Notes under the pieces: generated by a model | Told to the model about the DNA's origin: nothing | The model's database searches: none | What the model saw: only the letters and a program-made list of their open reading frames with translations | Shown: positions 15,597 to 20,091 of the stretch, piece by piece | Layout: each line of letters starts with the position of its first letter | Position numbering within the stretch: position 1 is the first letter of the stretch | Virus genome (UHGV): UHGV-0175781 | Length of the DNA stretch: 44,119 nucleotides | Source: a virus | Strand: one strand, 5' to 3' | Translations under genes and position numbers: made by a program

Positions 15597-15887
15597 ATGG
15601 ATAAGCTAAACGAGTGGCTATTCGCCCTGGCATGTCTGGCGGGGGGCTTCGTAGGCGCACGCATTCATGATGAGGCTACGAAGGGGCCGCTAAACTTCGT
15701 TTTGTATGTTGTAGTTGGCTTCCTGTGTGCCATATTTGGCGCACCGGCTATCGCTGAGTGGGCTGGTTTGTCGGGGGAGCGCACTGTCGCCGGTTTGGGC
15801 TTCGTAACTGCCATCTTCTGGATGCCAATAGCTGACCGGATCCGGGAGACAATTGCGACGCTACACCTTCCGGGGGGCGCAAAATGA
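15597..15887 (+). CDS. holin-like membrane protein (about 3 transmembrane segments)
   Basis: 96 aa; three hydrophobic stretches and a charged C-terminus; directly upstream of the endolysin. Confidence 0.6.
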   Translation: MDKLNEWLFALACLAGGFVGARIHDEATKGPLNFVLYVVVGFLCAIFGAPAIAEWAGLSGERTVAGLGFVTAIFWMPIADRIRETIATLHLPGGAK

Positions 15888-16129
15888 TTATCTCCGTCCT
15901 GTTGTTTGTTATCATCGGGGCTTCGTCCCTGTTTAACGTGTATGCGCCGTCCGTCCAGGATGGCATCTTAGGCCGGGTGCTGTATCTGTTAACGGCAATG
16001 ATCTGTCTTATTGGACTGTTGCAAACAGGAGACGTATCGGATACCACCTGGACCGCGTTAATCTGGCTGTTTGCATTGCGCACCCTGCGTAATGCTGTTT
16101 TAAATGGGGTAAAACATGCGATTCAGTGA
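15884..16129 (+). CDS. second holin/antiholin-like membrane protein
   Basis: 81 aa, mostly hydrophobic; overlaps holin stop and endolysin start. Confidence 0.5.
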   Translation: MIISVLLFVIIGASSLFNVYAPSVQDGILGRVLYLLTAMICLIGLLQTGDVSDTTWTALIWLFALRTLRNAVLNGVKHAIQ

Positions 16130-16607
16130 TAACGGTCTACGATTTACGGCAGCATGGGAGGCTTTCAGCCCGGTGCCGTATTTCGCGACCAAGAAAGAGC
16201 AGGCCCGCGGCCTGTACACCTGGGGTTATGGTCATACTGGCACTAATCCGCCACGAAGCATTACCCGCGAGGAAGCGCTGGCATTGCTCAAGCGCGATGT
16301 GGCGTATGCCGAGGGCTGGGTGAACAAATACGCACATCCGAGCATTAACCAGGCGCAATTTGACGCGCTGGTGGACCTGGTAATCAACGCCGGTCCGGGT
16401 CCGATCGTACCGGATGGCGTCGCGAATGATTTCGATGACGCGGTGCGGTTGGGCGACTGGGCGAAGGTACGTGCTACGCTGCCGCTGTTCCGCAAGCAAG
16501 GCGGGGAAGTGCTTAAGGGTCTGGTGCGCCGTGCAATCGGCAGACAGGCGTTGTTTGATGGTAAGCAGTGGGACGTTGCCGAGAAAATCGGGCGTAACGC
16601 CGCATAA
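16116..16607 (+). CDS. endolysin, GH24 lysozyme (T4 / lambda R type)
   Basis: 163 aa; WEAF...GLYTWGYGHTG matches the GH24 catalytic region; no N-terminal signal-anchor. Confidence 0.85.
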   Translation: MRFSDNGLRFTAAWEAFSPVPYFATKKEQARGLYTWGYGHTGTNPPRSITREEALALLKRDVAYAEGWVNKYAHPSINQAQFDALVDLVINAGPGPIVPDGVANDFDDAVRLGDWAKVRATLPLFRKQGGEVLKGLVRRAIGRQALFDGKQWDVAEKIGRNAA

Positions 16608-16622
16608 TACGAGGTAACACAG

Positions 16623-16785
16623 TATGTTAAAAAGCATTCTTGATCATAACGCTGACGCGCTCGCCGCGCTGGCTAAAACCGAAGATCCGGGCGCTCGCGC
16701 TATCATCGCGGACACTATCAGCCACGCTGGGGTCTTCGATGCGAAGCTGCCAAGCCCACCACCGTCCGCAGAGCCAGAAGAGTAA
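16623..16785 (+). CDS. small hypothetical protein (54 aa)
   Basis: hand-found ORF with GAGG SD, followed by a terminator. Confidence 0.3.
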
Positions 16786-16791
16786 ACAATC

Positions 16792-16818
16792 AAGCCCGGT
16801 ATTATCCGGGCTTTTTAT
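16792..16818 (+). terminator. rho-independent terminator (AAGCCCGG-TATTAT-CCGGGCTT plus T5)
   Basis: seen in sequence after the lysis cassette. Confidence 0.6.
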
Positions 16819-16881
16819 TGCCCGCCTCAATAAGTCCCATGATATATTGTCCCCAGTACACTAATCAGGAATTAATTAAAT

Positions 16882-18024
16882 ATGCACCCGCAAACTAAAA
16901 TTACCGATGAGCAATTGATCGCAGAAATTCAGGCAGGGACTACGGTTAAAGAGATTGCGAAGAAATACGGTATTGCCCTCCGAAACGTCTACATGCGGAA
17001 AGCCCGCCTGTCGAAAAAAGGCATTGGACACGGCAATGATACCGTAATCCGCAAGCGCGTTGCTGATGGCTTCGGTGTTAAGCGCGTATCTGCCTTGGTG
17101 CGCGGCAATGGCGAAGAGGTCATGTCGTGGGTCATCACTGAGCAGGACAAGGAGCGCCAACTCGAAGCCATGCGCGCTGTTGTCGAGGGTATGAACAGCG
17201 AAATCACACCGGCAGCGCCAGTAAAATCCCCTCCAGTACCGATCCAGGCGCTTGACTTGCTCAACCTGTACACCGTGTCAGACTTCCACCTGGGCATGTT
17301 GGCATGGGGCGAGGAGACTGGCGAAGACTGGGATATGGCGATCGCCGAAGACCTGTTCTACCGCTGGTTTGTCGAAGCCTTCGCACGCGCACCAGACGCA
17401 GGCACTGCCGTGATCAATATCCTCGGCGATATGGCGCACTTTGATAGCCTTGATGCCGTCACACCGGCAAGCGGTCACGTACTTGACGCTGACACCAGAT
17501 ACCAGAAGTTGGTCCGCTACATGATTCGCATGGTGCGCAACGTGGTAGACCTGGCGCTGCAAAAACACCACAAAGTCAAACTGCTAATCGTCCAGGGTAA
17601 TCATGACGAGTCGGGCATGATTTGGCTTGCTGAGATGTTCAACACGCTGTACGAGAACGAGCCGCGCGTCGATGTGGATACGTCCCCGGACGTCTACAAA
17701 ATGGTGCAGCACGGTAAGACCACGCTATTTTTCCACCACGGGCACAAAGCGCGATTCGATGCTATCGAGCAGGTTATGATCGCTAAATTCAGACAGGCGT
17801 TCGGGTCAAGCGAATACAGCTACGCGCACGTAGGTCATTTGCACCACCAGAAGATTGTCGAGTCTCGCAACATGATTGTTGAACAGCACCGGACGCTCGC
17901 AGCGAAAGACGCCTACGCCAGTCGTGGCGGTTGGATGTCCGGTCGCAGCGCAAACGTCATCACCTATAGCGCCAACTACGGCGAAGTAGCGCGCTTAACC
18001 ATTAGCCCGGAAATGTTGAAGTAA
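16882..18024 (+). CDS. HTH domain fused to calcineurin-like metallophosphoesterase
   Basis: 380 aa; N-terminal HTH TVKEIAKKYGIALRNVYMRKARL; phosphoesterase motifs DFHLG, GDMAHFD, GNHDE, HHGH, GHLHH. Confidence 0.7.
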   Translation: MHPQTKITDEQLIAEIQAGTTVKEIAKKYGIALRNVYMRKARLSKKGIGHGNDTVIRKRVADGFGVKRVSALVRGNGEEVMSWVITEQDKERQLEAMRAVVEGMNSEITPAAPVKSPPVPIQALDLLNLYTVSDFHLGMLAWGEETGEDWDMAIAEDLFYRWFVEAFARAPDAGTAVINILGDMAHFDSLDAVTPASGHVLDADTRYQKLVRYMIRMVRNVVDLALQKHHKVKLLIVQGNHDESGMIWLAEMFNTLYENEPRVDVDTSPDVYKMVQHGKTTLFFHHGHKARFDAIEQVMIAKFRQAFGSSEYSYAHVGHLHHQKIVESRNMIVEQHRTLAAKDAYASRGGWMSGRSANVITYSANYGEVARLTISPEMLK

Positions 18025-18154
18025 CGGCAACCCGTAAGCCTCCCAGCCTGCCGATTTGGTGGGCTTTTTTGTGCCTGTTATAATCCCAATTAGATGGCAG
18101 GGCCGTCTCCTATGTTGCCGATGGTCGGCGCATATGAACAAAAGGGCATATACC

Positions 18155-18706
18155 ATGGCAGAAATCAAAGTTAAGGGCCGACGCGCCAAACTGGACGGAC
18201 GAGTGGCTGTAACCCCGCGCCGTAAACCAGGCGAGCAAACCGAGCATACCAATCTCGGACCTGAGATCGAGTACGGCAAGCGCCGTAAAGGCGGCAAATG
18301 TGGACGCCCTACGGACTACCGATCCGTTTACTGCGACCAGCTTCGCCGCTATTTTGCCGACGCCGACGCCTGGCAGGTCAACTACTCCGATAAAGGCGCT
18401 GCGCAAGTAATCCCCCGCAACAAAATGCCAACCTTCGGTCGATTTGCCGCGGAAATCGGTGTGGGCGTAGCTTGCCTGTATCGCTGGGCGCGCGCACATG
18501 AGGAGTTCGCCGAGGCGATGGCTGACGCGATGGAGTTGCAGAAAACTTTCCTGATGGAAGCTGGCGGCGTGACCATCGCGGCGGGCTTCGCCACGTTCCT
18601 GCTTAAAGCCAACCACGGCGTACGCGACGATATCCCACTGGATGACGACGAAGATGATAACGGCGACGTCGTTGTCGAACCTACCGGCAAAGGCCAGGGC
18701 GAATAA
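18155..18706 (+). CDS. terminase small subunit (ORF extends to 18056)
   Basis: KMPTFGRFAAEIGVGVACLYRWARAHEEFAEAM...FLLKANHG resembles the Terminase_2 type TerS; stop overlaps TerL ATG. Confidence 0.7.
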   Translation: MAEIKVKGRRAKLDGRVAVTPRRKPGEQTEHTNLGPEIEYGKRRKGGKCGRPTDYRSVYCDQLRRYFADADAWQVNYSDKGAAQVIPRNKMPTFGRFAAEIGVGVACLYRWARAHEEFAEAMADAMELQKTFLMEAGGVTIAAGFATFLLKANHGVRDDIPLDDDEDDNGDVVVEPTGKGQGE

Positions 18707-20091
18707 TGCGTAACTATGCGGCGGAACACCGCGCACTGGAGCGCACGATCGCAAAGCGCAACCGACCACCACGCCCAACACGCGTTGCGCAGGCGGTGCG
18801 GCTTTACCAGCCTGATTGCCTTCCGCACCAGGTCGAACTACTGCGGGACACTAAGACTAAAATCCTCGGCCTGTGTTCTGGCTTCGGTGGCGGAAAGTCG
18901 TGGGTCGCTGCGCGTAAGGTCATCCAGCTTTTAACCCTGAACCCCGGTCATGATGGCATTGTTACGGAGCCGACTATTCCCCTCCTGGTTAAAATCATGT
19001 ATCCGGAACTGGAGAAGGCTTTCGACGAGGCTGGCTTCCGGTGGAAGTTCAACAAGCAGGACAAGATCTATAGCGTTCTGGTGAAAGGCAAATGGACCCG
19101 CGTGATCTGTGAATCAATGGAGAACTATACCCGCCTGATCGGGGTCAACGCCGCGTGGATTGTTGCCGACGAGTTCGACACCACGAAACAAGACGTCGCG
19201 CTGGCGGCATATCACAAATTGCTAGGTCGTCTGCGTGCGGGCTTCGTCCGCCAGTTCGTCATAGTATCCACGCCTGAAGGCTACCGGGCGATGTATCAAA
19301 TTTTCGAGGTGGAGAAGGATAGCCAAAAGCGCCTGATCCGGGCGAAGACCACCGACAACCACCATTTACCGGCAGACTTTATCGACACGCTGCGCAGTCA
19401 GTACCCGGCGAACCTGATTGATGCGTACCTGAACGGTCTGTTTGTTAACCTTACGTCGGGCGCGGTGTACAAGATGTTCAACCGCGATGAGAACGCCAGC
19501 ACCGAAGAAGTACAACCGGACGATACGCTGATTATCGGTATAGACTTTAACGTCACGAAAATGGCGGCGGTCGTGTATGTAAGACGGCAGCGTACCACCG
19601 AGAACAAGGAGTTCCGCGACGAGATTCACGCGGTGGATGAATTTGTGGACCTGTTTGACACCCCGGCTATGATTGAGGCGATCGAGGAGCGCTACCCGGA
19701 ACATTGTGCCGCCGGTAGGGTCGTCGTGTATCCGGATAGCAGCGGAAAATCCCGCAAAACGGTCAACGCGTCGTCGTCCGATATCGCGCAACTGGAAGAT
19801 GCGGGCTTCGAGGTGGAGTACGACAGCGTTAACCCACCTGTGAAAGACCGATTGATCGCGATGAATACGATGATGTGCAACTCGAAGGGTGTACGCCAGT
19901 ATTTTGTCAACCTGGATAAATGCCCTACACTAGCGAAATGTCTGGAACAGCAGGTTTACGACCTGAAGAAAGGCGAGCCGGATAAAACGGCCGGGGTGGA
20001 CCACATGAATGACGCAGCGGGCTATCCTATTGCGCACTTGTTCCCAGTGATTCGCCCAATCGCCGTTGTTCCAACTGTAGACTTCTACTAA
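18706..20091 (+). CDS. terminase large subunit
   Basis: 461 aa; Walker A-like GFGGGKSWVAA, Walker B WIVADEFD; position before portal. Confidence 0.85.
   Translation: MRNYAAEHRALERTIAKRNRPPRPTRVAQAVRLYQPDCLPHQVELLRDTKTKILGLCSGFGGGKSWVAARKVIQLLTLNPGHDGIVTEPTIPLLVKIMYPELEKAFDEAGFRWKFNKQDKIYSVLVKGKWTRVICESMENYTRLIGVNAAWIVADEFDTTKQDVALAAYHKLLGRLRAGFVRQFVIVSTPEGYRAMYQIFEVEKDSQKRLIRAKTTDNHHLPADFIDTLRSQYPANLIDAYLNGLFVNLTSGAVYKMFNRDENASTEEVQPDDTLIIGIDFNVTKMAAVVYVRRQRTTENKEFRDEIHAVDEFVDLFDTPAMIEAIEERYPEHCAAGRVVVYPDSSGKSRKTVNASSSDIAQLEDAGFEVEYDSVNPPVKDRLIAMNTMMCNSKGVRQYFVNLDKCPTLAKCLEQQVYDLKKGEPDKTAGVDHMNDAAGYPIAHLFPVIRPIAVVPTVDFY

Follow-up and report, generated by a model that had tools for sequence, protein, structure and literature searches.

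The gene at positions 16882..18024 (+ strand) of the analysed window, the whole 44,119-nucleotide stretch of viral genome UHGV-0175781, starts at an ATG and encodes a 380-residue protein in which a predicted helix-turn-helix (HTH) is joined to a divergent metallophosphoesterase (MPE) core. This combination is already known from the catalogued phage family PHROG 704. The best explanation we can offer for the protein, held with somewhat less than even confidence, is a nuclease tethered to DNA, dispensable for the phage, that acts on DNA of the host or on replicating DNA.

An earlier note had located the reading frame exactly and had rightly set it between the lysis cassette and the terminase genes. 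Upstream lie two holin genes (15597-15887 and 15884-16129), an endolysin gene (16116-16607) and a small phrog_11068 gene (16624-16785), and downstream lie TerS (18134-18706, assigned from the annotation of phage B2) and TerL (18706-20091). As read from its sequence, the lysis operon is ended by a terminator-like hairpin (16792..16813, + strand; AAGCCCGG-tattat-CCGGGCTT, then TTTATT), detected by pattern scan and folding, which starts 7 nt past the phrog_11068 stop codon and has a predicted dG of −16.4 kcal/mol (z −3.7 against shuffles). Between this hairpin and the gene, an extended −10-like element (TGATATATT; 16840..16848, + strand), 34 nt 5′ of the ATG and identified by consensus match only, and an AGGA at 16867-16870 (+ strand), a plausible ribosome-binding site, together make up a candidate promoter region of the gene's own; a promoter scan that requires a −35 match did not report the element. 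Among relatives, the most widely retained stretch of the upstream spacer runs from about 16816 to the ATG.

Beyond the gene, the pattern scan found a further terminator-like hairpin (18045..18065, + strand; AGCCTGCCG-att-TGGTGGGCT, then TTTTTTGT), beginning 21 nt past the stop codon and 5′ of TerS. Its fold is weaker than that of the upstream hairpin (dG −13 kcal/mol, z −1.3). The spacer around it shows 95–99% conservation across 115 Dhillonvirus records, and a comparable hairpin stands 3′ of the Bas01 homologue (39156-39177 in L009). The gene would form a small transcription unit of its own, situated after the lysis-operon terminator and before the terminase/structural operon begins.

The binuclear MPE core (17248..18021, + strand; residues 123-380) has all five motifs intact: D134-x-H136 (motif I), G182-D183-M-A-H186-F-D188 (II), G239-N240-H241-D242-E243 (III), H285-H286-G287-H288 (IV) and G318-H319-L-H321 (V). 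These fit the pattern of the calcineurin-like MPE superfamily (DxH, GDxx(D/H), GNH(D/E), H, GHxH), and the complete motif set that had been claimed earlier is present, except that motif II reads GDxxH(xD) and not GD..D; GDxxH is the form that this motif takes in Mre11. The domain and structure search that had been proposed as a check bears out the assignment. In a 128-sequence family alignment, all five motifs are invariant or at least 90% conserved, with D134, H136, D183, N240, H241, H286, H319 and H321 invariant or nearly so at identities down to 26%. An AlphaFold2 model (pLDDT 87.2) predicts a three-helix N-terminal bundle followed by the β-sandwich MPE fold. Two further conserved stretches are specific to the family: residues 187-202 (VTPxSGHVLDxDxR), modelled as a low-confidence loop, and residues 338-351 (TLAAKDAYAxRGGW).

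Profile searches were less sensitive. The protein scored below the gathering thresholds of Pfam Metallophos_2 (PF12850; 23.7 bits vs 27) and Metallophos (PF00149; 20.2 vs 21.5), and a match at E ≤ 0.01 was obtained for only 11 of the 128 family members. Nothing in NCBIfam came near threshold for the 380-residue protein, and PDB searches by sequence, with the single protein or with the 128-sequence profile, gave no real match; hits to armadillo-repeat designs were repeat artefacts, and those to LrpA and GerE (E 0.08 or worse) were rejected. From its motifs and predicted fold, the protein is best described as a divergent branch of the MPEs.

The N-terminal HTH noted earlier was also recovered, as a predicted three-helix DNA-binding domain (16906..17016, + strand; residues 9-45, helices 9-17, 22-29 and 33-45) in two AlphaFold2 models. 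The protein alone gives weak, sub-threshold Pfam HTH matches (GerE/HTH_28, E ~0.02), and across the family HTH_1 matches 77 of 128 members (best E 1.3e-8), HTH_50 36 and Sigma70_r4_2 five. The top N-terminal Foldseek matches were all HTH regulators, none of them significant (best E 0.03). Next comes a conserved β-hairpin and helix (17062..17196, + strand; strands at residues 64-73 and 79-88, helix at 90-105), in which S70 and W83 are invariant in the family alignment. The N-terminal 122 residues, searched alone with Foldseek, gave no significant match as a unit, and the β-hairpin/helix sub-domain is specific to the family, with no known structural counterpart.

Against PHROG 704, labelled 'DNA repair exonuclease', the match is full-length and far better than chance would give (E 8.9e-162; residues 5-380 vs profile positions 2-390 of 390). 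Homologues occur in 2063 phage records, 1693 of which cover at least 80% of the query, and the family comprises 4676 representatives at 50% identity, mostly 370-420 residues long. Its members are found in Dhillonvirus, Kagunavirus, Jerseyvirus, Drexlerviridae and many other siphophages. Architecture and length are constant throughout PHROG 704, so the fusion pointed out earlier is the norm; the homologues in Campylobacter phages lack the HTH entirely. The protein is a plain member that differs in nothing material, with 99% identity to the proteins of the Dhillonvirus phages B2 and PNS1, and near-identical copies are annotated in more than 150 Dhillonvirus genomes. Family names in GenBank include 'putative phosphoesterase', 'calcineurin-like phosphoesterase superfamily domain protein', 'winged helix-turn-helix domain-containing protein' and 'DNA polymerase II small subunit'. 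Such names are computer-derived and contradict one another (exonuclease, phosphoesterase, polymerase subunit, oxidoreductase, wHTH protein). Literature searches on the family returned only genome descriptions, virion proteomics of Pantoea phage AAS23 and a preprint on the DRT7 defence system, with no enzymatic assay of any member reported.

The nearest structural neighbour of the AlphaFold2 model in Foldseek is Mre11 (E 1.8e-9), through its nuclease-domain fold, and PHROG 284, 'exonuclease', is weakly linked (E 6e-14). The earlier note had left the choice between nuclease and phosphatase open: nuclease is the better structural guess, and a phosphatase of the lambda type finds no such backing, as neither a close fold match to PPP-type enzymes nor their GDxVDRG and GNHE motif forms were found. 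The resemblance to the Mre11 and SbcD nucleases, a group that has phage versions of the T4 gp47 type, amounts to only 14–16% identity over 185-190 aligned residues. Those enzymes have a C-terminal capping domain, which the phage protein lacks because it ends with the MPE core, and they lack both the N-terminal HTH and the β-hairpin that it possesses. Compared with the archaeal PolD small subunit DP1, a 3′-5′ proofreading exonuclease, it has no OB-fold and no PolD large subunit; the polymerase of this phage belongs to family A. The class III phosphodiesterases Rv0805, CpdA and GpdQ share the MPE fold and score comparably in Foldseek (E ~1e-7), with CpdA aligning to the family profile over motifs IV-V only. 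Profile comparisons with E. coli SbcD, CpdA and LpxH yield motif-level alignments only, so sequence does not discriminate between subfamilies.

Genetic evidence comes from one preprint and concerns a homologue of 44% identity from a different phage family. This is Bas01_0050 of Escherichia phage AugustePiccard (Bas1, Drexlerviridae), at the escape locus for DRT7/UG10, which aligns over its full length (E 4e-104), has the same domains and is directly followed by a terminator-like hairpin. Its gene occupies a different slot, preceded by a helicase gene and small genes and followed by those for holin, endolysin and spanin. Bas1 escapes DRT7 through missense or frameshift mutations in bas01_0050, lambda escapes by loss of gam, and bas01_0050 expressed alone is toxic in E. 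coli (2026 preprint). The positions of the bas01_0050 mutations are not given in the preprint or its supplement. Toxicity and DRT7 escape are features of Bas01_0050, established there and not for the Dhillonvirus protein. A role in counter-defence, which the earlier note had raised, finds no support: in these, the only genetic data, the homologue makes Bas1 sensitive to the defence.

A DNA-tethered nuclease would work as follows. The HTH, probably aided by the β-hairpin and helix, would hold DNA, and the C-terminal phosphoesterase, a two-metal enzyme structurally of the Mre11/SbcD/PolD-DP1 type, would cleave phosphodiester bonds. We infer that DNA is the substrate and the host chromosome the target; in the infected cell, DNA ends and branched intermediates are the likely alternative targets. 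The protein would be a stand-alone accessory enzyme in the phage's repertoire for DNA metabolism and, to judge from the 44%-identical homologue, would be harmful to the host and not needed for plaque formation. In the related phage, DRT7 would detect the consequences of its activity. Several observations weigh against a nuclease: an hhalign comparison between the family profile and E. coli SbcD aligned only the 17 columns around GNHD, with a probability of 1.4%, which falls short of profile homology; the Mre11-type cap is missing; and no Rad50/SbcC-like (SMC) ATPase was found among the window's scanned reading frames, which included every one longer than 380 residues, or beside homologues in the contexts examined. 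Nucleotide depletion could, moreover, also cause toxicity.

That last point leads to a family of readings that we consider unlikely, though worth weighing, in which the enzyme is a small-nucleotide phosphodiesterase or pyrophosphatase (acting on cyclic-nucleotide signals, NAD+ or dNTPs) or an end-healing enzyme that removes 2′,3′-cyclic or 3′-phosphates. Its action would then alter the pools of nucleotides, remove second messengers of immunity or mend nucleic acids that have been cut, and the HTH would serve for localisation or autoregulation only. Rv0805 and GpdQ follow close behind Mre11 in Foldseek, and in both Webervirus KOX1 and Pantoea phage AAS23 the gene is directly followed by genes for a polynucleotide kinase/phosphatase and a dNMP kinase. 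Some defence systems are documented to use growth-stopping enzymes of the calcineurin-like type, with depletion of dNTPs or NAD+, and such an activity would explain the toxicity. A family-conserved, predicted DNA-binding HTH has no obvious role in such an enzyme, however, and motif II has the Mre11-like GDxxH form. The kinase neighbours occur in three of 28 dereplicated loci and are restricted to one lineage, and neither the 380-residue protein nor Bas01_0050 matched any PADLOC model, so that no known defence or anti-defence model was matched.

It is decidedly less probable that a DNA-binding nuclease of this kind is made late, carried in the virion and delivered to the next host with the genome, or acts as soon as infection starts, either attacking host DNA or weakening RecBCD/SbcCD-type attack on linear phage ends. 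Such a protein would be a functional counterpart of lambda Gam, which would explain why loss of either protein leads to escape from DRT7. On this improbable reading, the family might also correspond to the classical host-DNA degradation function of phage T1, which reportedly needs a 'gene 2.5' and is not known to have been cloned.

We give similarly little weight to a protein that is mainly a transcription factor, its HTH acting on promoters of the phage where early and late, or lysis and structural, genes meet, and its phosphoesterase serving as sensor, dimerisation scaffold or secondary activity. The HTH does resemble domains of the LysR, LuxR/GerE and sigma region 4 types, the gene is often found at an operon boundary beside lysis genes, antiterminator Q or integrase, and the spacer 3′ of it is unusually conserved. 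Yet the metal-binding and catalytic residues remain invariant across the family, which argues for selection on catalysis, and the Campylobacter phage homologues do without an HTH. A late-gene activator would also be expected to be essential, but the frameshift mutants are viable.

Only in Dhillonvirus does the gene stand beside TerS. In Drexlerviridae, the homologue lies 3′ of genes for a helicase, VRR-NUC and Dam and 5′ of the lysis genes; in Jerseyvirus it is part of an island within the tail module; and in other phages it follows the lysis genes or falls among replication genes. The gene is located elsewhere than beside the terminase in seven other phage groups, and no terminase was found within five genes of it in Drexlerviridae, Jerseyvirus, Rhizobium, Rhodobacter or Vibrio phages. 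Neighbours mostly belong to replication, recombination, nucleotide metabolism or lysis, and terminase is rare: it occurs within five genes in about three of the 28 dereplicated loci, which is not above chance. A lysis enzyme lies within five genes in about 36% of the same loci; a tight link to the lysis cassette, suggested by nine of 13 hand-picked contexts, was dropped in favour of an enrichment that falls short of a rule.

A nuclease or phosphatase that assists packaging together with the terminase, for instance in processing concatemers or pac sites, is therefore very improbable, as is the variant of a late protein loaded into the virion. In its favour are the Dhillonvirus position directly 5′ of TerS, the lysis-enzyme neighbourhood, typical of a late function, and the detection by LC-MS/MS of the homologue gp38 (42% identity) in purified virions of phage AAS23. 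A single proteomics detection can, however, be abundant-protein carry-over. The gene is flanked by terminator-like hairpins, one of them between it and the TerS operon; TerS and TerL are each complete without it by Pfam and PHROG profile searches; and mutants of the homologue with frameshifts form plaques. The link to packaging proposed earlier is thus not sustained, and the remark that the fusion is no standard member of the packaging module holds: adjacency to the terminase in this phage group is a coincidence, and the gene takes no part in packaging. Least credible of all is a Ser/Thr/Tyr protein phosphatase that, like the lambda-type enzyme carried by lambdoid phages, reverses phosphorylation of host or phage proteins; the protein belongs to the same superfamily as that enzyme and shares its metal-binding motifs.

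As a single gene, near-identical to catalogued Dhillonvirus copies, the one described here has little significance. The family, by contrast, forms about 4700 clusters at 50% identity and counts as one of the more widespread siphophage enzymes that are still uncharacterised. One of its members is toxic to E. coli and determines whether the DRT7 reverse-transcriptase defence catches the phage. Identification of the substrate would correct thousands of annotations and could show what DRT7 senses.

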